DNA of 22,914 nt, from NCBI GenBank assembly GCA_964247135.1, contig CAXTTL010000054.1, forward strand, positions 1-22,914, given 5' to 3'. The translations under genes and the position numbers were made by a program. Each line of letters starts with the position of its first letter. The first letter of the stretch is position 1. The notes beneath the pieces were generated by a model that did no database searches, was not told where the DNA came from, and saw only the letters and a program-made list of their open reading frames with translations. Below, piece by piece: positions 1 through 10,093 of the stretch. This stretch comes from an uncultured Deinococcales bacterium (GTDB lineage Bacteria > Deinococcota > Deinococci > Deinococcales > JAAFIG01).

Positions 1-429
1 GGCGGAGGTCAGATCGGCATTGTGCTCAAGATCGAGAATCGCAGCGCCTTCGAGAACCTGCCCGAGCTGCTGCTGGCGGCACTCAAGCATCCACCCGTCG
101 CGGTCATGATCGCTCGAGGTGATCTTGGGGTCGAAATCGGCTTTGAGCGGCTCGCCGAGGTTCAGGAGGAAATCCTCTGGCTCTGCGAGGCTGCACACGT
201 TCCGGTCATCTGGGCGACGCAGGTGCTCGAGTCGCTCGCCAATCAAGGTCTGCCCACCCGCGCCGAGGTGACCGACGCCGCGATGTCGGCTCGAGCCGAG
301 TGCGTGATGCTCAACAAAGGACCGTATATTCTCGAGGCGGTCTCATTTTTGGACAACGTTTTAAAGCGCATGAAGTCGCATCAGAACAAAAAAACCTCGA
401 TGATGCGCCGTTTGAAGGTGACGAGCTGA
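1..429 (+). CDS. pyk: Pyruvate kinase, 5'-partial; short form ending after the catalytic barrel (Pyk2-like)
   Basis: Frame open from base 1 ([13 protein letters not shown]). Motifs [30 protein letters not shown] and AECVMLNKG are present. Stop TGA 427-429, with no C-terminal regulatory domain. Confidence 0.93.
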
Positions 430-434
430 ATCAA

Positions 435-597
435 TTCTCGAGTATCCTGAAATTCGTTACAACCACCAGTCACCACCCGAGGAGCAAAGAGCATGTCAAG
501 CGATGCCGTCTCAGAACCCTCTAAAACCTCGAGCGATCCCATTTTGGGACTTGGAAGCCAAGCCGCCCGTGCCAAGCTGGCTGAAGTCGGTCTGAAC
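435..597 (+). repeat. Repeat X copy 1: mgtA leader plus first ~35 codons
   Basis: Aligns with 3181-3330: about 18 mismatches in 150 aligned nt by hand, and copy 2 lacks 13 nt. Confidence 0.92.
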
Positions 598-3060
598 GAA
601 CTCTCGAGCGTCAAAACCCGTCCATTGTTGCTGCAATGGTTGTCGTACTTCGTGCAACCGCTCACGGCGATTTTGCTGATTGCCGCGCTCGTTTCTGGGA
701 TTTCGGGCGATTGGTTAAACGCCATTATTATTGTCGTGATCGTGGTCGGCAGCGTCGCGCTCGATTTTGTCCAGACGCAGCGCTCGCACGTGGCTGCCGA
801 ACGCCTTCGCAGCGTGGTTTCACCGACCGCCAGCGTCAAACGCGACGGCTCGTGGCTCGAGGTTCCGCGCAAAGAACTCGTTCCAGGCGATTTGATTCGA
901 CTTAAGGCGGGTGATCTTGTGCCCGCCGATGGGCGACTGGTTTCGGCGCGTGACCTGCACGTTCAACAAGCCGCCTTGACGGGCGAATCCATGCCCGTCG
1001 AAAAAAACGTGAGCGATAGTAAGCAAACACCAAATCTCGAGAATCCAGCCGATGCCAGCAACCTCGTCTTTGTCGGCTCGAGCGTGGTCAGTGGCAACGC
1101 CGAAGCGCTGGTCACCGCCACGGGTTCGCGCACCGCCTTTGGTGGCATTGTCACCAGCCTGGCTCGTCGCGCCCCAGAGACCGAGTTCGAGCGCGGCACG
1201 CGGTCTTTTAGTTTGTTCATTGTGCAGATTGTGCTGTTTTTGGTCTTGTTCGTCTTCGCGGTCAGCGCCTTTCACAAACGCGATCCGCTCGAGTCGCTGC
1301 TGTTTGCGGTGGCGCTGGCGGTCGGTTTAACCCCAGAATTTTTGCCGATGATCACGACCATCACGCTCTCCAACGGCGCGATTCGGATGTCCAAGCAAAA
1401 CGTGATCGTCAAGAACCTCTCGAGCATTCAAAACCTGGGACAGATCGACACGCTTTGCAGCGACAAAACCGGCACGCTCACCAGTGGCATCATGACGCTC
1501 GAGGGTCGGCTTGACCCGTTCGGCGCTGACAGCGACACGGTTTTTTTGCTGGCGTATCTGAACAGCCTGTTTGAAACTGGGATCACCAACCCGCTGAATA
1601 CCGCGATTCTCGAGACCAAAGACGCCAATCCGCTGGACCTTGCCATTCTCAAATCTGACCATCCAGACGTCAAACATTACACGAAACTCGACGAGGTTCC
1701 GTTCGATTTCGAGCGGCGTTGCGTGTCGGTGGTGGTCTCTCGAGCGACCCCTGCCGGCGAAGAACATCTGATGCTGACCAAGGGTGCACCGGAAAGCATC
1801 CTGAACCTTTGCACGGGTTTTGAACAAAATGGAGTTCAAACCCTGACTTCCGAAGCTCGAGCCAAAATTGAAACCGTGGTCAACAACCTTTCCGCTCAAG
1901 GCTACCGTGTGATTGCCGTGGCGTACCGCAACATGCCGCTCGAGGTACAACAAGCCGCGTACCATGCCAGCGACGAACACGATCTGGTGCTGGCAGGTTT
2001 TGTCACCTTCGTTGACCCGCCGCTGCCCGATGCCAAAGAAGTCTTGAACGCGCTGGCGGTGAAAGGCGTGACCGTCAAAATTTTAACGGGCGACAACGAA
2101 CTCGTGGCGCGGCACGTCTGCGAAACGGTCGGACTGAATGTTGGTAGAATTGTTCTGGGCAGCGAACTCGAGGGCATGACCGACACCGCACTGCTTCAGG
2201 TGGCAGACGCAAACACGGTCTTTGCCAGGGTTGCGCCCGCCCAAAAAAACCGCATCATCTTGGCACTCAAAGCCAGAAAACACGTGGTCGGTTACATGGG
2301 CGACGGCATCAACGACGCGCCCAGTTTGCACACCGCCGACGTGGGCATCAGCGTGGCGAACGCCACCGATGTTGCCAAAGACGCCGCCGATATTATTTTG
2401 CTCGAGCCTGGTTTGCGGGTGCTCCTGAGCGGCATTCTCGAGGGTCGTCGGGCGTTTGGCAACGTCATGAAGTACCTTCTCATGGGCACGAGTTCCAATT
2501 TTGGCAACATGTTTTCGATGGCTGGCGCGTCGTTGTTTTTGCCGTTCTTGCCGATGCTGCCGACCCAAATTCTGGTCAACAATTTCTTGTACGACCTGGC
2601 ACAAATCACCATCCCCAGCGACAACGTGGACCCTGCCTTCCTCGAGAAACCGCACCACTGGGACATCAGTTTGATTCGGCGTTTTATGTTCTGGATTGGT
2701 CCGATCAGTTCGGTCTACGATTTTCTGACTTTTTTTGTGCTCTTAAAAATCTTTGCCGCCAAAGAAGCCGAGTTTCACACGGGCTGGTTTGTCGAATCGC
2801 TGGCAACCCAAACCCTGGTCATTTTTGTGATTCGCACCTTCGGCAATCCGTTCCGCTCAAAGGCAAGTCCAGCGTTGAGTCTCACGGCGTTGGGTGTGGT
2901 GCTTGTCGGCGTGATCTTGCCCCTCACACCACTTGCCGAAATTCTTGGTTTTGTGCCTTTGCCAGCGCTTTATTTTGCGTTTCTGGGCGTGGCGACGCTG
3001 ACTTATTTGGGGTTGGTGGAACTGGTCAAACGGCGTTTGTTCGGGTCGGTCATGGGTTAA
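493..3060 (+). CDS. mgtA: Magnesium-translocating P-type ATPase (P3B)
   Basis: 855 aa. TGES, AVGLTPEFLPMI, CSDKTGTLT phosphorylation site, GDGINDAP, SSNFGN and FHTGWFVESL. GAGGAG RBS upstream. Confidence 0.95.
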   Translation: MSSDAVSEPSKTSSDPILGLGSQAARAKLAEVGLNELSSVKTRPLLLQWLSYFVQPLTAILLIAALVSGISGDWLNAIIIVVIVVGSVALDFVQTQRSHVAAERLRSVVSPTASVKRDGSWLEVPRKELVPGDLIRLKAGDLVPADGRLVSARDLHVQQAALTGESMPVEKNVSDSKQTPNLENPADASNLVFVGSSVVSGNAEALVTATGSRTAFGGIVTSLARRAPETEFERGTRSFSLFIVQIVLFLVLFVFAVSAFHKRDPLESLLFAVALAVGLTPEFLPMITTITLSNGAIRMSKQNVIVKNLSSIQNLGQIDTLCSDKTGTLTSGIMTLEGRLDPFGADSDTVFLLAYLNSLFETGITNPLNTAILETKDANPLDLAILKSDHPDVKHYTKLDEVPFDFERRCVSVVVSRATPAGEEHLMLTKGAPESILNLCTGFEQNGVQTLTSEARAKIETVVNNLSAQGYRVIAVAYRNMPLEVQQAAYHASDEHDLVLAGFVTFVDPPLPDAKEVLNALAVKGVTVKILTGDNELVARHVCETVGLNVGRIVLGSELEGMTDTALLQVADANTVFARVAPAQKNRIILALKARKHVVGYMGDGINDAPSLHTADVGISVANATDVAKDAADIILLEPGLRVLLSGILEGRRAFGNVMKYLLMGTSSNFGNMFSMAGASLFLPFLPMLPTQILVNNFLYDLAQITIPSDNVDPAFLEKPHHWDISLIRRFMFWIGPISSVYDFLTFFVLLKIFAAKEAEFHTGWFVESLATQTLVIFVIRTFGNPFRSKASPALSLTALGVVLVGVILPLTPLAEILGFVPLPALYFAFLGVATLTYLGLVELVKRRLFGSVMG

Positions 3061-3114
3061 CGCCTACTCAGAGGAATTTCTCGAGTCGTTCATTCAATGA
3101 TGCCCTGCCGTGCT

Positions 3115-3188
3115 CAAACCGTGAGTTCTGTCTCACCCCAAAACTGATAGGCTAGACCTCGAGCATTTGACCCAATTCTGTTCTCGAG
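3115..3188 (+). repeat. Repeat Y copy 1: duplicate of the murJ upstream/promoter region
   Basis: 3115-3164 matches 5707-5756 at 47/50 nt. Both copies continue to GTTCTCGAG at the same offset (ending 3188 and 5780). Confidence 0.92.
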
Positions 3189-3330
3189 TATCCTGAAATT
3201 CTTTGCAATCACCGATCATGACTCGAGGAGCAAAGAGTATGTCAAGCGATTCCATCTCAGAACCCTCTAAAAACTCGAGCGATGCTGCTTTGGGACCGCC
3301 CGTACAAAGCTGGCTGAAGTCGGTCTGAAC
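3181..3330 (+). pseudogene. Repeat X copy 2: frameshifted 5' remnant of mgtA
   Basis: RBS and ATG (3239) are retained. Reads MSSDSISEPSKNSSDAALG versus MSSDAVSEPSKTSSDPILG in mgtA. A 13-nt deletion shifts the frame to TGA at 3326-3328. Confidence 0.85.
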
Positions 3331-3421
3331 ATCTTGAGTGCAATAAGACCGCGCAAAAATGCCGCTTGATCGCGTCCCTCAAGGCGCATCATGACCGATC
3401 ATAGGGATAGTAGAGATTCAC

Positions 3422-3541
3422 ATGAGCAATTCTAAAAAAAATTCTTCCTTTCAAATAAACATTCCCAACGCAGATTTGGTTGACCTGCACGCCCGACTGA
3501 AGCGCACCCACTGGTCTGACGAACCTGAGCACACGGGTTGA
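3422..3541 (+). pseudogene. N-terminal remnant of a second epoxide hydrolase (EHN domain)
   Basis: Hand translation MSNSKKNSSFQINIPNADLVDLHARLKRTHWSDEPEHTG* aligns with FTIDIPQTVLDDLRDRLERTRLPDE of the gene at 4412. The TGA falls where family members usually have Trp (GW). Confidence 0.75.
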
Positions 3542-3647
3542 AGCTTAGAAATGCTACAGTGTCGAAATCGATCTCGAGCAATCCAGTTTGTTATCGTCCA
3601 CTCACGGATTTAACACGGTGAAAAGCTACGAATCAAGAAGGTCGAAT

Positions 3648-4322
3648 ATGAGCTTTCATCAGGAGGAAAGAGCGGGAGATTCGCCTTTTGCACGAACGAT
3701 CTTTCGTATTCGGTTCGAGGGCGACGGCTGTTTGATGGCGATTGCTGACGGCAGCCCAGACATAATCATCATCAAACAGCGCGGCGAATCGCGGATATTC
3801 TTTTCTGGGACGCGCACCAAAGCCGCACCTATTTTCTACAAAGAAGGCATGGAATTCATCGGGATTCGCCTCGCGGTGGGTGCGTTCCTGCCGCAGTTGC
3901 CGCCCGAAACCATGCTAGATTCGACGACCTTGCTGTCCTCAGCCACAGCTCGATCCTTCTGGCTGCACGACACCGCGTTGCCCCTGCCCGACTTTGAGGA
4001 TGCAGATGTCTTTATAAAGCGACTCGAGCGTCACGGTCTGATCACCCACGATGAAATGGTCAAGGCGACCTTACAAGAACAACCCAGCCCAGAATCGCTT
4101 CGGTCGGTGCAGCGCCGCTTCTTGAAAACCACAGGAATGACCCAAGCCTATATCCGGAAAATTGAACGGGCGCTTCACGCCGCAAACCTTCTACGGCAAG
4201 GTGTGTCCATCGCCGACACCATTTACCAGGCAGGCTACTTTGACCAGGCGCACCTGACCAAGGCGCTCAAACACATGACGGGTTACACACCGTCGCAACT
4301 TACCCCGCCAAGCAAGCCCTGA
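3648..4322 (+). CDS. AraC-family HTH transcriptional regulator (DUF6597-like N-terminus)
   Basis: C-terminal SLRSVQRRFLKTTG and AGYFDQAHLTKALKHMTGYTPSQ. ATG 3648 after AAGAAGG is preferred over TTG 3588. Confidence 0.9.
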   Translation: MSFHQEERAGDSPFARTIFRIRFEGDGCLMAIADGSPDIIIIKQRGESRIFFSGTRTKAAPIFYKEGMEFIGIRLAVGAFLPQLPPETMLDSTTLLSSATARSFWLHDTALPLPDFEDADVFIKRLERHGLITHDEMVKATLQEQPSPESLRSVQRRFLKTTGMTQAYIRKIERALHAANLLRQGVSIADTIYQAGYFDQAHLTKALKHMTGYTPSQLTPPSKP

Positions 4323-4328
4323 GTGGTT

Positions 4329-4371
4329 GTCGTTTTCGTACAAGACCGTTACGCGGTGGTCGCACTACAGT
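4329..4371 (+). promoter_or_regulatory. Putative AraC activator site plus -10 for the epoxide hydrolase
   Basis: GTCGTTTTCGTACAAGAC (GTC-N12-GAC, 4329-4346) lies just after the araC stop, at the -35 position relative to TACAGT (4366-4371). AGGAGG RBS at 4401. Confidence 0.55.
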
Positions 4372-4411
4372 CATCTGGGCGTTGACACGTCAGCCAGCTC
4401 AGGAGGCAATC

Positions 4412-5575
4412 ATGAAGATCAATCCGTTCACCATCGACATTCCACAAACCGTTCTCGACGACCTGCGCGACCGTCTCGAGCGCACCCGCTTGCCCGATGA
4501 ACTCGCCAGTGTTGAAGGAATTTACGGCGTACCGCTCGGCTACATCAAACGCCTCGTCGCGTACTGGCTGGACGGCTACGACTGGCGCAAACACGAGGCT
4601 GGACTGAATCAATACCCGCAGTTCACCACCGAAATCGACGGTCAGAACATTCACTTCTTGCACGTGCGTTCCCCAGAACCTGGTGCGCTGCCACTCATTC
4701 TGACGCACGGCTGGCCCGGCTCGGTCGTGGAATACCTCGACGTGATCGGTTCGCTCAGCGATCCTCGAGCGCACGGCGGTGATCCGGCAAACGCCTTTCA
4801 TTTGGTGATTCCCTCGCTCCCAGGATTCGGGTTCTCTGGACCCACGCACGAAACCGGTTGGAACCGCTATCGGACCGCCACAGCTTGGGCGGAACTGATG
4901 AGGCGACTGGGCTATGACCGCTACGGTGCAGTCGGCAACGACGCGGGATCGATGATCAATCCCGAACTCGGACGGATCGACCCCGAGCATGTCACTGGGC
5001 TTCACGTCACCCAGATTTTCTCGTTCCCATCCGGCGCTCCGGCAGAAATGGCGGACCTGACCCCAGAAGAGCAGCGCGAACTGGAAACGCTGCAATGGTT
5101 CTCCCAGAACAAACTTTCCTTCAACACACTCATGTCCCAGCAGCCTCAGACGCTGGCGTTTGCGCTATCGGATTCTCCGGTAGGTCTGCTCGCCTGGAAT
5201 GCCCAACTCTTCGGGGATGAATTCGATGACGATTTTGTTTTGACCAACGTCATGCTTTACTGGTTAACCAATACCGCCGCGTCTGCGGCTCGCTTCTACT
5301 ACGAAGATGCCCACGCGACACCGCCGAGTGGACAGACTACAGTACCCATCGGTCTGGCGGCATTCGCGGGTGATTTCAGTGGCATCCGCCGTTTCGCGGA
5401 TCGGGATCATTAGAACATCGTTCATTGGTCAACGTTCAACCGTGGAGGTCACTTTGCCGCCCATAAAGTTCCCGATTTGCTCGTTGGTGATGTGCGGGCG
5501 TTCTTTGGGTCGTTACGCGCAATGCCGCCAACAAAGTCTGATGCGCCTTCCAAGCAGGCTCGAGATTCTATCTGA
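4412..5575 (+). pseudogene. Epoxide hydrolase (EHN + alpha/beta hydrolase) interrupted by in-frame TAG at 5411-5413
   Basis: HGWPGS, VIPSLPGFGFS, nucleophile elbow GNDAG and DSPVGL. After the TAG the same frame continues NIVHWSTFNRGGHFAAHKVPDLLVGDVRAFF (catalytic His motif) to TGA 5573-5575. Confidence 0.88.
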
Positions 5576-5706
5576 GAACCAAAATAAAACCAGCGCTCGA
5601 GAAGTTTCTGGGTTGTGAAAGCGCAAGAATTTCTCGAGCATCGCTTCCAGCAAATTGGGTTCTACGGTCTTGATGCTCGAGTTTGTAAGATTGCAGCGGT
5701 TTTTGC

Positions 5707-5780
5707 CAAACCGTGAGTTCTGTCTCACCGCAAAACTGATAGTCTAAACCTCGAGCGCTCGCATTTTGGGCGTTCTCGAG
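5707..5780 (+). promoter_or_regulatory. Repeat Y copy 2: probable murJ promoter with palindromic site
   Basis: GTGAG-N6-CTCAC (5713-5728) and extended -10 TGaTAGTCT (5737-5745), about 40 nt before the murJ ATG. The copy at 3145-3153 reads TGaTAGGCT. Confidence 0.6.
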
Positions 5781-5785
5781 GATTC

Positions 5786-7405
5786 ATGACTGAAACAACC
5801 ACCGAACCCATCATCGAAACCCTGCCGCCTCGCCGCTCGAGCGCCCGCAACATCCTGACCGTGATGAGCGGCACGCTCGCCAGCCGCGTGCTGGGTTTGC
5901 TGCGCCAAGCCTTGTTTAACCGTTTGTTCAATTCCGAAATCACCGATGCGTTTAACCTCGCCTACCGCATTCCAAACCTTTTCCGCGAACTGCTCGCCGA
6001 GGGGGCGTTGACCAACAGCATCATTCCGGTTTACAAATCTTTGCCACTCGAGGAACGCCCAAAATTTGCCGCCAGTTTAACAGGCGCTCTGGCGGGACTG
6101 AATTTGCTGGTGGTCGGCTTTGGCATTCTGCTCGCGCCGTTCGTGGTTGGACTGCGCATGGCGGATCACTCGAGCATCAATTTTGCGCTTGCCTTGCAAC
6201 TGACGCGCATCGTCTGGCCATTTCTGGCGGGCATTTCCTTCAGTGCCCTGGCGATGGCGCTCTTGAACGCCTCTGAACATTTTGGCAGTTCCTCGTTCAG
6301 TCCGTTGGCGTTCAGTGTGGTCTCGATCATCGGGTTTTTATTATTCCCAAACAATGCCGTCATGCTTGCCGTCATGACCGTGATTGGCGGTTTCGCGCAG
6401 TTTTTTGTGCAAATTCCCAGCCTGCAAAAATTTGGTCTGATGCCCAAACTCGAGTTTTCCTGGCACCCCGCGCTCGGTAAAGCCTTGGGTCTGATGGTGC
6501 CGTTTACCTTCACCACGGGCACTCGAGAGTTGCTGTCGGTGGTGTTGACGGGCATTTTGACCTCGTTTCCAATTGGCGCGATGACGGGTTTCACCAACGC
6601 CGACACCATATTCTTGCTGGCGTTGGGTCTGTTCGCGGTTTCACCCGCCCTGGCGTTTTACCCGCGCCTCGCCGAGTACAGCGCCGCCAAAGACTGGACC
6701 AGTTTCCGCGACACGCTGCTGTCCGCCTCGAGGCTCGTGGTGTTCTTGACCGCCCCCGTGACCGCCGTGATTTTTGTGCTCGCGCCAAGTGTCACGAGTG
6801 CCATGTTTGAACTGACCGGACGCATCAGCAACGACAAATTTGTTTTCACGGTGGCGGCACTGCCACCGCTCGCGCTCGCCATGATTACCTGGGGTTTAAA
6901 CCAATTTTTGGTTCGCGCCTTTTACGTGCGGCAAAAAACCCGTGAAGCCATCGTGATTAACGTCGCAGGCTTTTTACTCAACACTGCCATGTATTACGTT
7001 CTCTCGAGGGGCGCACCGACGGCGTTGGCGTTCAAGGGGGTCAGTCCCGCGCAGGCTCAAATTTTGTTGAACGATGCCCTCGCGCATTACCAACGCATGA
7101 ATTACGGCACAACCTTGACGGGTTGTTTGATCGTGATTGTTTACCTGGTGACGCTGACCGCGCAGGTGCAACTGAACTGGAAAAAATTGGTTGGACACAT
7201 CATCAAGGTTTCAATCGCGGCGCTCGCGGCAGCACTGGTTGCCAATTTCATCTCGAGCTTGATTCCCTTGCATCGCGGGTTTATCAACGGCGCACTGCAT
7301 TTGGGTTTGGCTGGCGGTGCGGCATTGGCGGTTTACATTGGGCTTTGCACGGTGTTGCAGGTGCAAGAGGTGGCAGGGTTGCGGCGCAGATTCTTAAAAC
7401 GTTGA
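5786..7405 (+). CDS. murJ: Lipid II flippase MurJ (MviN)
   Basis: 539 aa polytopic membrane protein. SRVLGLLR, DAFNLAYRIPNLFRELLAEGAL and RAFY motifs. Confidence 0.95.
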   Translation: MTETTTEPIIETLPPRRSSARNILTVMSGTLASRVLGLLRQALFNRLFNSEITDAFNLAYRIPNLFRELLAEGALTNSIIPVYKSLPLEERPKFAASLTGALAGLNLLVVGFGILLAPFVVGLRMADHSSINFALALQLTRIVWPFLAGISFSALAMALLNASEHFGSSSFSPLAFSVVSIIGFLLFPNNAVMLAVMTVIGGFAQFFVQIPSLQKFGLMPKLEFSWHPALGKALGLMVPFTFTTGTRELLSVVLTGILTSFPIGAMTGFTNADTIFLLALGLFAVSPALAFYPRLAEYSAAKDWTSFRDTLLSASRLVVFLTAPVTAVIFVLAPSVTSAMFELTGRISNDKFVFTVAALPPLALAMITWGLNQFLVRAFYVRQKTREAIVINVAGFLLNTAMYYVLSRGAPTALAFKGVSPAQAQILLNDALAHYQRMNYGTTLTGCLIVIVYLVTLTAQVQLNWKKLVGHIIKVSIAALAAALVANFISSLIPLHRGFINGALHLGLAGGAALAVYIGLCTVLQVQEVAGLRRRFLKR

Positions 7406-7448
7406 CGCTCGAGAAGGTTTGATGAGTTTACGCTCATGGATTCCGAAT

Positions 7449-7463
7449 TAGATTTATTGAATG
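7449..7463 (+). promoter_or_regulatory. Putative leaderless promoter (-10 TAGATT, 6 nt, ATG)
   Basis: TAGATT-tattga-ATG with no Shine-Dalgarno sequence. Confidence 0.45.
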
Positions 7464-8447
7464 CCGCCCAAAAATACTCGAGCCTTCTTTTTTGTTTCAA
7501 TATTGAATCTGTTATTGCTGGTCTTGCTGTGGTTTATCGACGAGCGTTTTGCCGAACGCAACTGGTGGATCACCATTCTCGCTTACGTTCCGCAGCATCC
7601 TTTCGGTTTACTGACGCTTTTTTTGGTCGTGTGGGCAATTGTTAAACGCAATGCTCGAGGTGTGTTATTGCAGTTGCCCAGCCTTGTCTTGCTGTTGGTG
7701 TACTTTTTTGGTTTCAACATTCCTTTCGGCTCGAGCCATACCGTTCAAAACGGTGTTTCATTGCGGGTCATGAGTTACAACCTGTTTGGTAAAACCGCCA
7801 CCAGTACAGTCTTACAAGCCGCAAATGCAGACATTATTTGTGTTCAAGAATCTCGAGATCAAAACTTGCTCAAAGCCCTTCAACAAGCGCTGCCAAACTA
7901 TTTTATGGCGCATGAAGGTGAGGTCACGACCTTCTCGAGATTCCCAATTCTGACCACCAAAGTACAGCATTTAAAACGCAGTTGGCGCACCATCCTCGAG
8001 ACTGATCTTGATGTGAACGGCACAGTTGTTCGCGTGGTCAACGTTCATTTCAACACGCTGAACATTCAAGGTGGAAGCTACTATCAAAAACATCCAGAAT
8101 CTATGGCAGGGCGGGTCAGCACATCCATCGAAGATCGGCGGGAAGCCGTCAACATTTTGCTCGAGATTGCAGCAAACACGAACCTGCCGCTATTGATCTT
8201 GGGGGATTTCAACACGCCAACCCGAGGAACGTTGTACGGTGCTCTCAAAACACAACTCGAGGATGCGTTTGCAACGACGGGTTGGGGCTTTGGCTATTCG
8301 TTTCGCTCAGATTTGCCGTTGCTGAGGATTGATTACGTGTGGACAAATCCTTTCGTCAAACCGACTCGAGCATTTGTGATTAATACTCGAGCCTCAGACC
8401 ATCGTCCGTTGGTGGCTGAGGTTATAGTCAACCGCCCGACGCCCTGA
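7461..8447 (+). CDS. Membrane-anchored endonuclease/exonuclease/phosphatase (EEP) family protein
   Basis: About three N-terminal hydrophobic helices, then LRVMSYN, DIICVQE, NVH, GDFN, RIDYV and SDHRPL. Confidence 0.92.
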   Translation: MPPKNTRAFFFVSILNLLLLVLLWFIDERFAERNWWITILAYVPQHPFGLLTLFLVVWAIVKRNARGVLLQLPSLVLLLVYFFGFNIPFGSSHTVQNGVSLRVMSYNLFGKTATSTVLQAANADIICVQESRDQNLLKALQQALPNYFMAHEGEVTTFSRFPILTTKVQHLKRSWRTILETDLDVNGTVVRVVNVHFNTLNIQGGSYYQKHPESMAGRVSTSIEDRREAVNILLEIAANTNLPLLILGDFNTPTRGTLYGALKTQLEDAFATTGWGFGYSFRSDLPLLRIDYVWTNPFVKPTRAFVINTRASDHRPLVAEVIVNRPTP

Positions 8448-9555
8448 TCCTCGAGTTCAAGTGATCTTCAAGCCTCTCGAGTGCCTCTGGCATGTTTTGC
8501 CTCCCATAACCCATCCGAACGTGCCCTGGTTGATCGTAGACGCCACCAGGTAGCAACAAGACGCCCGTTTCGCGCACAATCTCCTCACAGAAATCCGTGA
8601 CATCCCCATCAATGCTCACTCGAGGAAAACCAATCGGGCTGGCATTCGGTTTGACCCAAGAAAACAAGCTCGAGTGTCGCGCCAAAAATGCCTCGAGCAG
8701 CGGTAAATTTTGATGCACAATCTCGAGGTTGCGGGTCAACAATGTTTGGCGTTGCCGCAGTGCCAAGGCGGTCAAAAATTCGGACGGGGCGCTCGAGCAG
8801 ATGGTCGTGTAATACTTGAAATGCAGGCATTTCTCGAGCAAGTCGTGGTTGCGCGATGCCAACCAGCCCAAACGCAGTCCAGGCAATCCGTAAGACTTGC
8901 TCATCGAACCGAGCGAAATTGCATTCTCGTAAACCTCACAAGCCGCAGGAAGTCGCGTGCTCGGGTCATGCTCGAGTTCGCGGTACACCTCGTCACAAAA
9001 CACGATGATGCCGCGTTCTTTGGCAAGGTTCGTGACCGCCGCAAAAACTTCAGGCTTCATGTTGATGCCCGTCGGATTTGAGGGCGTGTTGATGTAAATC
9101 ATTTTCGTGTTCGGACGAATCAGTGCCTCGAGCGCCGCCAGATCGTGCGCCCAACCGTCCTCAAAATGCCGTTGCCACTGGCTGACTTCCGCGCCAGTGC
9201 TTCGTGCCAACTCGAGTCCACTTTCGTAACATGGCGTCTCGACAATCACATGGTCATTCGCTGCCAAGAGTGCGTGATAGACCAGAAAAATGCCCTCTTC
9301 GGCGCTCGAGATCACCAATACATCATCGCTCGAGATACCTTGGTAAATTCCTGCAATCGCCTCGCGCAAAAACGGAGCACCAGAAGATTCCGTATAGCCA
9401 AGCCAGTGCTCGTCAAAGCGTTCTTTGGCGTCAGGCTCGAGCGCCAGCAACTCGGCAACGGTTCGTGATTGCGCGTCCGAACTCGAGAGCATGAACTGCG
9501 CACTGAATTCGTACTTGGCGTAATAATGCTCGATGCGAAATGGCTTGAGGTTCAT
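8428..9555 (-). CDS. Aminotransferase class I/II-fold PLP-dependent enzyme
   Basis: NTPSNPTG, DEVY, GSMSKSYGLPGLRLGW (PLP lysine) and VRMGYG. AAGGAG RBS. 3' end overlaps the EEP gene by 20 nt. Confidence 0.92.
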   Translation of the reverse strand: MNLKPFRIEHYYAKYEFSAQFMLSSSDAQSRTVAELLALEPDAKERFDEHWLGYTESSGAPFLREAIAGIYQGISSDDVLVISSAEEGIFLVYHALLAANDHVIVETPCYESGLELARSTGAEVSQWQRHFEDGWAHDLAALEALIRPNTKMIYINTPSNPTGINMKPEVFAAVTNLAKERGIIVFCDEVYRELEHDPSTRLPAACEVYENAISLGSMSKSYGLPGLRLGWLASRNHDLLEKCLHFKYYTTICSSAPSEFLTALALRQRQTLLTRNLEIVHQNLPLLEAFLARHSSLFSWVKPNASPIGFPRVSIDGDVTDFCEEIVRETGVLLLPGGVYDQPGHVRMGYGRQNMPEALERLEDHLNSRIRASGG

Positions 9556-9580
9556 GCAACTCCTTGAAACAAGAAAAAAT

Positions 9581-9853
9581 CTATTTCACTGTAAACCAAT
9601 CAACAATAACCTTTACCGTAGTAATCAGCGTAGCCACAGTGGTTATGACAGCTAACAAAGTAATTCTCTTTGTCATTCGATCCATTGCACGGGTATACTC
9701 GAGCATCTCTTCACTCGTCTTCTGTTGATCTCTTCGATGCAACTCATCTAAATAATGTGCTGTGCCAACCACAGTACTTTTTGCTAGCACGTCATGCTGT
9801 TGGATCAAATTGTCATCTGAAAGTTCCCTTAGTTGAGCTATGGTTTCTGCCAT
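9581..9853 (-). CDS. Hypothetical 90-aa protein with C-terminal transmembrane helix
   Basis: GGAGGTG RBS (9864-9870) before ATG 9853. MAETIAQLRELSDDNL...ITLLAVITTVATLITTVKVIVDWF. AT-rich. Confidence 0.65.
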   Translation of the reverse strand: MAETIAQLRELSDDNLIQQHDVLAKSTVVGTAHYLDELHRRDQQKTSEEMLEYTRAMDRMTKRITLLAVITTVATLITTVKVIVDWFTVK

Positions 9854-10093
9854 TTGAATTTCACACCTCCGTTTTACCCGAGTTTCCAAAACTCACTGAT
9901 CTCAGGCATACGTTAAGTACGTTGAAAAGTCTTGTGAAGTTCCATGTCAATTTCTTGGGTCAGATTTTAGAATATTGTCTTGGTTTAAGATATTACAGGT
10001 ACACTTCTGAGCATTTACAACCAATGATCTTTACGCCTTTCCTTTGGGCTTTATAACTAATCGAAAGCACGTGCAGAACAGCTTTTGTCCTGG

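Follow-up and report, generated by a model that had tools for sequence, protein, structure and literature searches.

Related systems and the locus

In Salmonella, the joints of tandem duplications are found in REP elements, and RecA-independent recombination at short repeats, as reportedly treated by Bzymek and Lovett in 2001, is the general class to which such joints belong. Homology-facilitated illegitimate recombination is known from natural transformation in Acinetobacter, Streptococcus pneumoniae and Pseudomonas stutzeri, and what hyper-abundant palindromes such as HIP1 do for their genomes is a question of decades' standing. Here we describe a joint at positions 3115-3330 of a 22,914-nt contig of an uncultured Deinococcales bacterium (CAXTTL010000054.1 of assembly GCA_964247135.1; the whole contig is "the window"). 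In this joint, a second copy of X, an element upstream of the lipid II flippase gene murJ, meets a second copy of Y, the leader and 5' end of the P-type ATPase gene mgtA. The two copies meet on the palindrome CTCGAG, at the left end of a block found in this genome only. We think it probable that the joint arose by illegitimate short-homology recombination at the CTCGAG(C) of positions 3158-3164, with the palindrome serving as passive microhomology; CTCGAG would have been used since no other word comes near it in how often two stretches of this genome have it in common.

The joint is like those in REP elements in being an end-to-start novel joint that falls in a short sequence carried by both parents, with an abundant genomic repeat as the shared word. 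It is unlike them in that the word is a 6-nt palindrome where REP is a 35-nt hairpin. Unlike the REP duplications, moreover, it has kept no more than about 170 nt of its second copy, and a sister genome is without the block, so that loss or import must also be assumed. With homology-facilitated illegitimate recombination the joint would share one end anchored by homology (X-murJ) and another at a microhomology of a few bases (CTCGAG), and an outcome in which an insertion duplicates part of its target. By this analogy, homology-facilitated import would explain why the second leader copy branches outside the two orthologous copies described below.

According to Elhai 2015 (PMC4390886), there are signs of site-specific recombination at the cyanobacterial palindrome HIP1 (GCGATCGC) in PCC 7002; in PCC 7942 and in E. 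coli, cloned sequences undergo illegitimate recombination "at a much lower efficiency", and no evidence links HIP1 to homologous recombination. CTCGAG is likewise a hyper-abundant short palindrome in coding and non-coding DNA; it differs from HIP1 in the word, in its host, a member of the Deinococcota, and in that the counts reported here fit passive microhomology. Our literature search found no paper pairing "highly iterated palindrome" with CTCGAG.

The assembly that holds the window (G000) has 5.09 Mb in 386 contigs, a G+C content of 52.7% and a completeness of 84%. It contains CTCGAG 33,925 times, or once per 150 bp, against 3,272 occurrences of the next palindromic hexamer and 14,894 of the next hexamer of any kind, so that CTCGAG is HIP-like in the sense of a short palindrome many-fold commoner than comparable words. 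Five matches to N6_N4_Mtase provide methyltransferase candidates in the same genome. We compared G000 with the five other available genomes of its genus (G001-G005), of which G005 is the closest at about 87% nucleotide identity, and with G008, from another genus of the family.

Position of the switch

An earlier note on this DNA took 3115-3188 for a copy of the murJ upstream region at 5707-5780 and 3181-3330 for one of the leader plus 5' end of mgtA, with the crossover exactly in the TTCTCGAG of 3181-3188. Its second assignment is borne out: 3181-3296 is 86% identical to 435-550 and 3296-3330 is 94% identical to 563-597, with a 13-nt gap between the two, which gives the identity of about 88% without the gap that the note had stated. 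The octamer TTCTCGAG is also present at 435-442, 3181-3188 and 5773-5780. The first assignment stands for 3115-3164 (Table 1) and fails for 3165-3180, where 3 of 16 positions agree with 5757-5772, which is chance level; thus the X homology is 50 nt long, not 74 nt, and ends in CTCGAGC.

The 16 nt in question find their match elsewhere. We refer to the leader before the intact mgtA as L1, to that at 3165-3238 as L2, and to a third copy as L3, which in G000 lies on C98, the contig at the left end of the window (itself contig C54). We aligned six copies: L1 and L3 of both G000 and G005, L2 of G000 and L3 of G003. At the start of the leader unit, a TTGA(A/C)(T/C)CAAT motif shares bases with the stop codon of the preceding gene; 4-9 nt follow, and then come CTCGAG and (T/A)ATCCTGAAATTCG. 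The L3 of G005 reads CTCGAG-TCTTTGAATCAAT-CACC-CTCGAG-AATCC, and the G000 joint reads CTCGAG-CATTTGACCCAAT-TCTGTT-CTCGAG-TATCC. Since 3165-3180 aligns with the upstream part of the leader in L1 and L3, the TTCTCGAG of 3181-3188 is merely a piece of the leader unit, and the second copy of X (X') meets the leader at CTCGAG(C) 3158-3164. The crossover had thus been placed 17-23 nt too far to the right, and its true position is still on a CTCGAG.

Neither duplicated element is a dispersed repeat. X occurs twice in the whole assembly, both times in the window, and Y occurs at 435, at 3181 and at C98:15222-15312 (77% over 95 nt). The last 15 nt of C98 are the first 15 nt of C54, the 5' part of the pyruvate-kinase-like gene pyk at the start of the window is on C98, and the corresponding stretches are contiguous in G005, so that all three copies of Y belong to one locus. 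With two and three copies, all of them there, we set aside mobile elements and also dispersed repeats, the latter being what the earlier note had named as a finding that would undo its reading; X and Y are genuine local duplicates. The same note rightly held that this is not an assembly duplicate: divergence between the copies is 6-19%, and at the joint no more than 6 bases are common to the parents. Pairwise comparison of X', X and the X of G005 gives 3-4 differences in 50 positions.

A search of 21 related genomes for the leader gave three copies in G000, two in G005, a weak match in G003 and nothing else but a 23-nt match in G009 that was taken for chance. A 19-nt core of X occurs once each in G001, G003, G004 and G005 and twice in G000 alone; no copy was found in G002, where the contig sets in just past the X site. 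A metagenome search with MgtA returned 597 relatives, and the best 80, all with at most 72% protein identity, yielded no further strains of the mgtA-murJ locus; a pattern for X matched in 8 of 120 loci examined, none of them among these best 80. A contig search with MurJ led to one locus, L013, whose alignment figures equal those of the G005 locus L002, so that we did not count it as an independent genome. One relative has a MurJ that is 95% identical.

The block and its absence from the closest relative

In G005, the counterparts of window positions 186-3167 and 5701-6200 lie side by side, with the 59 nt that they have in common falling on its one X, in the order mgtA, flank, X, murJ. With a single X between mgtA and murJ there, G000 carries 2,592 bp extra, flanked by two copies of X. 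This 2.6-kb block consists of one copy of X and positions 3165-5706, and 3115-3330 is its left joint. The intact mgtA to its left has 87% nucleotide identity to that of G005 and 77% to that of G008.

The block is a patchwork of decaying pieces, and at least four of its seams are on CTCGAG. The second mgtA start (mgtA') is a stub of 92 coding nt and 29 codons that ends in a stop at 3326-3328 after the frame-shifting 13-nt deletion, at whose ends a single base is shared, as judged by eye from the alignment. Its homology to mgtA fades at TCTTGAGTG (3332-3340), the counterpart of TCTCGAGCG (601-609), where a decayed CTTGAG (3333-3338) faces CTCGAG (603-608). Downstream follow about 90 nt of unattributed origin, a hydrolase fragment that is 77% identical over 43 nt to 4460-4502, and an AraC-family gene. 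The larger epoxide hydrolase gene, at 4412-5575, is probably a pseudogene, judging by an in-frame TAG (5411-5413) upstream of its GGHF motif at a codon that reads CAC (His) in the orthologue of G011. That orthologue (locus L004) has an in-frame stop of its own at codon 12; both genes may be pseudogenes, or the stops may come from sequencing errors. The central 2 kb of the block has 4 CTCGAG sites, and 2.1% of the 2-kb windows of the genome have as few or fewer, which suggests a later arrival from a lineage poorer in CTCGAG. Towards the right end lies Z2, whose match to an intergenic stretch of C98 reaches about 125 nt by eye. The source of Z2 is itself inside a larger difference between the two genomes, C98:3244-14305, which is about 11 kb in G000 and about 640 bp in G005.

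The remaining relatives place X with murJ. In G001 and G004, a small membrane-protein gene that has no Pfam family stops 18 nt short of X, which murJ follows; pyk and mgtA are both absent there. G003 has pyk, a 130-nt 3' fragment of the membrane-protein gene, X and murJ; the main part of its membrane-protein gene has been deleted within a shared AACTCGAGG. G008 has a DUF6544 gene, the membrane-protein gene, 125 nt of leader-like sequence, mgtA and a convergent gene, with no X. From the G008 arrangement it follows that the order membrane-protein gene, leader, mgtA is old, and that X belongs with murJ in the genus.

Age and source of the second copy

Over 150 shared positions, 13 changes are specific to the L1 of G005, 6 to the L1 of G000 and 10 to L2. 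At 3 sites the L1 of G000 and the L1 of G005 agree with each other and differ from L2 and L3, and no site groups L2 with the L1 of G000, so that L2 is not a recent copy of the L1 of its own genome. The divergence between L2 and L1 is about as large as that between the G000 and G005 orthologues, which agrees with the earlier note that the event is old. We are left with a duplication as old as the split of G000 and G005 with later loss in G005, or with an import from a related lineage. Loss of the block in G005 would be easy by exchange between the two copies of X. By duplication and import alike, the joint of X to the leader had to arise by illegitimate exchange at CTCGAG.

What may be an older trace of exchange between the same partners lies on the murJ side. 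Positions 5742-5770 align with mgtA 520-548 with 26 of 29 alignment columns identical and one gap. The local score of 41 was reached by none of 2000 site-preserving shuffles (maximum 31) and by none of 3998 genomic CTCGAG-centred stretches (maximum 32). The CTCGAG of X is where this patch starts, and G001, G003, G004 and G005 have it too. It would result from a deletion between the CTCGAG of X and that of mgtA codons 12-13 in an array of X, leader and mgtA, and it hints at repeated exchange between X/murJ and leader/mgtA partners.

CTCGAG at breakpoints across the genome

The earlier note proposed that CTCGAG sites act as rearrangement points, and would have given this up had breakpoints been no closer to CTCGAG than site density predicts. 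We find that larger breakpoints do exceed site density, that small indels show no excess, and that an active mechanism is not needed for either.

Duplication ends in G000 were collected from 6,905 high-scoring segment pairs of a self-BLAST, from which we dropped those with more than two partners, those at most 60 nt from a contig end and those beside runs of N. An end was scored when a shared CTCGAG started 0-5 nt inside it, and the expectation was taken from the density of sites in the flanks. Amongst the 21 pairs with at least 90% identity, 8 of 42 ends are on CTCGAG against 2.0 expected (p 8e-4), one of the eight being the locus described here. Lowering the threshold to 80% gives 17 of 178 ends against 8.7 expected (p 0.007). 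Beside runs of N we also observed six exact 55-nt duplicates (C3:45769-45978 and one each on C12, C139, C151, C270 and C327), each pair flanking such a run with the copies 155 nt apart; these are scaffolding artefacts, not biology.

We also compared G000 with 264 kb of G005 for the ends of homology blocks. CTCGAG is exactly at the edge of 11 of 182 block sequence-ends, where flank density predicts 1.6 and where 600 random breakpoints simulated through the same BLAST pipeline give 0.58% per sequence-end. Counted as events, 6 of 80 block ends are on CTCGAG against about 1 expected.

Small indels behave differently from these larger events. CTCGAG is near the boundaries of 12.5% of 168 gaps of at least 6 nt and of 10.6% of controls; for larger gaps the figures are 11.4% and 11.5% (79 gaps of at least 10 nt) and 7.4% and 10.3% (27 gaps of at least 20 nt). 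None of 107 gaps of at least 8 nt within aligned blocks has in-register CTCGAG at both ends. These indel tests have low power, as gap placement is noisy at 85% identity. One apparent CTCGAG-to-CTCGAG deletion, in the L3 of G000 relative to that of G005, was not counted because it needs an extra 8-nt insertion.

The size of the excess is that of passive microhomology. Words that bear CTCGAG make up 9.7%, 17% and 24% of the identical 6-, 7- and 8-mer pairs in the genome, and the observed shares of 7.5% (6 of 80) and 19% (8 of 42) against the 10-24% thus expected leave passive microhomology sufficient. At the locus itself, 8 of the 9 6-mers common to the pyk-mgtA and mgtA-murJ spacers overlap CTCGAG sites, so that a microhomology joint between these two spacers was almost bound to fall on one. 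Site-specific recombination would put the majority of exchanges on the site and would have an enzyme of its own; counts of 6 of 80, 8 of 42 and 0 of 107 do not describe such a process. Across the genome, CTCGAG is a rearrangement point in a weak and passive sense only.

Proposed origin of the joint and competing explanations

The anatomy of the block, its absence from G005, the place of the switch and the genome-wide excess with its size are observed. For the mechanism and the order of events, we infer an exchange in which the CTCGAG within X would have paired with a CTCGAG (or CGAGC) lying immediately 5' of an mgtA leader. It could have happened by an unequal exchange that tandemly duplicated the segment leader-mgtA-X, or else DNA of a closely related lineage could have come in, held by homology at its murJ side and joined illegitimately at the other side only. 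The second mgtA copy would later have been lost except for 92 frame-shifted bases, and the block would afterwards have acquired the AraC-epoxide hydrolase pair, now with its nonsense codon, and another CTCGAG-bounded patch. X, which lies 3' of mgtA, is joined to a leader, which lies 5' of mgtA, both on the plus strand; this is the end-to-start order that the earlier note rightly expected from tandem duplication of the mgtA-to-X segment. Two full copies are not present, as about 170 nt of leader and 5' coding sequence survive together with X, and the rest of the block is unrelated DNA.

Several observations weigh against this origin or against parts of it. A recent duplication within the genome is unlikely in view of the aligned copies, since L2 stands outside the pair formed by the L1 of G000 and the L1 of G005 and has none of the 6 changes specific to the L1 of G000. 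The flanks of the two X copies, 3086-3114 and 5682-5706, both start after CTCGAGT and can be aligned only poorly, though X' and X are 94% alike; a simple tandem duplication predicts similar flanks, and needs selection or gene conversion restricted to X, or a boundary exactly at 3115. Were L1 the parent, the word that it offers today would be no longer than CGAGC, and 3 inserted nt would have to be assumed as well. The contig itself is as the metagenome assembly gives it. Genome-wide, the excess amongst duplications of at least 85% identity is marginal (9 of 98 ends against 4.8 expected, p 0.05), and that at block edges amounts to 6 events, set against a null drawn mostly from coding DNA when the real edges are mostly intergenic.

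The alternatives are less probable. That the exchange took place in the TTCTCGAG of 3181-3188 and shuffled the murJ promoter onto the start of mgtA, as first proposed, has in its favour that the octamer is at all three places and that the distance from the end of X to the octamer is 16 nt in both contexts of X. Those 16 nt, however, agree with the murJ side at 3 positions only and carry the TTGA..CAAT motif of the leader; what the joint leads into is the frame-shifted stub, amid gene debris, and the copied leader unit has promoter-like hexamers of its own. A working promoter fusion is not evident, and we regard this version as very improbable; 3115-3330 is a decaying duplication or insertion scar, ordinary as a single locus. 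It is also very unlikely, if slightly less so, that X'-L2-mgtA' is the relic of an older order with X before the leader, from which X-murJ was derived by CTCGAG-to-CTCGAG deletions. Such an origin would account for the murJ-side patch, which starts at the CTCGAG of X and is far beyond chance; against it, G008 has its leader-like sequence and mgtA behind the membrane-protein gene and without X, X is single-copy beside murJ in four other genomes of the genus, and for both forms to be present in G000 a duplication would be required all the same. It is extremely improbable that the metagenome contig is a chimera of two strains: the assembly is fragmented and has the scaffolding duplicates noted above, yet the 6 identical bases at the joint are far below the word of any assembler, and the diverged copies have unique sequence between them.

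We think it unlikely that CTCGAG is actively cut or exchanged, by a XhoI-type nuclease, HIP-directed repair or a recombinase, with the segments rejoined in a new order. The block boundaries on CTCGAG, together with one in G003, and the excess at homology-block edges speak for such an activity, and for HIP1 Elhai 2015 (PMC4390886) cites site-specific plasmid recombination in PCC 7002 and illegitimate recombination of low efficiency. The share of breakpoints is, however, no larger than the abundance of the word predicts, the indels show neither in-register sites at both ends nor boundaries closer to sites than controls, and other events at the locus use other words, such as the pyk deletion of G005 at CGAGGC. 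The XhoI family (PF04555) has no match in the 84%-complete G000, which says little, as control genomes are equally silent. Illegitimate recombination at a passively shared CTCGAG is the explanation that we prefer.

Signals and neighbouring features

In Table 1 we collect the features of the locus.

Table 1. Features along the pyk-mgtA-murJ region of the window, with the evidence for each.
Feature	Positions	Strand	Evidence
3' end of pyruvate-kinase-like gene (pyk)	1-429	+	Pfam PK barrel, E 1.8e-22
L1, leader unit of intact mgtA (TGAATCAAT..TTCTCGAG TATCCT..GGAG..ATG)	424-492	+	six-copy leader alignment
Intact mgtA-type P-type ATPase, 855 aa	493-3060	+	Pfam E1-E2_ATPase, Cation_ATPase_N, Cation_ATPase_C
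mgtA 3' flank running on into X', as in G005	3061-3114	+	within single 186-3167 alignment to G005
X', second copy of murJ-upstream element, ending CTCGAGC (3158-3164)	3115-3164	+	47/50 identical to 5707-5756
L2, second mgtA leader unit, with TTCTCGAG at 3181-3188	3165-3238	+	alignment with L1 and L3 of G000 and G005
mgtA' stub, frame-shifted first mgtA codons	3239-3330	+	13-nt deletion
39-codon N-terminal fragment of a second epoxide hydrolase	3422-3541	+	Pfam EHN, E 0.0018, weak, below cut-off
AraC-family regulator gene	3588-4322	+	Pfam HTH_18, E 3.6e-13
Epoxide hydrolase frame broken by TAG 5411-5413	4412-5575	+	Pfam EHN, E 1.5e-40
Z2, copy of intergenic stretch C98:10884-11002, both ends on CTCGAG	5557-5681	+	84% over 67 nt (BLAST)
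Remnant of small membrane-protein gene: last codons, stop, spacer	5676-5706	+	comparison with G001 and G004
X (5707-5756) and tail reaching the murJ start	5707-5785	+	X conserved upstream of murJ in the genus
murJ (lipid II flippase)	5786-7405	+	Pfam MurJ, E 3.5e-74

L2 contains a match to the promoter consensus at 3167-3194, TTGACC-16 nt-TATCCT. The spacer between the corresponding hexamers is 16 nt in L2, 11 nt in L1 and 14 nt in the L3 of G005; with a workable 16-nt spacer in L2 only, we keep the sigma-70 promoter reading as a consensus match and nothing more. An Rfam scan of positions 1-6200 with E up to 1 found no riboswitch or known mgtA RNA leader; its sole match, a weak one to SNORD15, was set aside as chance-level. 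Within 5713-5744 (and likewise 3121-3152), X holds a perfect inverted repeat, GTGAG-N6-CTCAC, and a TGATAGTCT stretch resembling an extended -10 box. Five genomes of the genus conserve this region, where the repeat and the -10-like stretch may be a candidate murJ promoter or operator.

CTCGAG also appears at gene starts. CTCGAGG (or CCCGAGG) lies 6-12 nt ahead of the start codon in murJ, the mgtA copies and the membrane-protein gene (window 5775-5788, 3222-3241 and 478-495, and about 1120-1145 of locus L008), where the palindrome, as read from its position, doubles as the Shine-Dalgarno GAGG. The deletion joint of G003 falls in such a CTCGAGG-type site. Behind the third leader copy, C98:15271-15456 is a 61-codon open reading frame that starts like MgtA (MLNNAVSQP..SS) and whose stop overlaps the start of pyk (ATGA). 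The overlap suggests that pyk has captured an mgtA leader with its 5' end and is expressed from them. The MgtA-like small frame before pyk has 22 codons in G005 and 18 in G003. The pyk of G005 (L002 1418-1580) has lost a large piece from its interior, so that codon ~30 now leads directly into the C-terminal part, and it has one further small deletion; it is probably a pseudogene.

Two other differences from G005 lie further along the window. Positions 7414-8457 are 1,044 bp with an Exo_endo_phos-family gene (7461-8447), where G005 has only 18 bp; in G000 the left edge is exactly on CTCGAG and the right edge is 2 nt from one. Opposite positions 9565-10078, G005 has about 16.6 kb (C34:67916-84588) whose G000 counterparts sit on C187 and C225, a larger rearrangement or an assembly difference.

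Implications

This genome is an independent case of a hyper-abundant palindrome outside the cyanobacteria. The locus and the two genome-wide counts place rearrangement joints on CTCGAG above what site density leads one to expect, and the 10-24% of joints that shared words alone would put there is a null model against which active roles of such palindromes can be tested. We consider it improbable that the CTCGAG sites are enzyme-driven cut-and-join points at which modules bounded by CTCGAG are swapped between genes and strains. If they were, the modules would be promoters, leaders, gene starts and CTCGAGG Shine-Dalgarno regions, and the palindrome would serve a modular shuffling of the genome. 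With CTCGAGG doubling as the ribosome-binding site at several genes, as it appears to do here, gene starts would be easy to swap.

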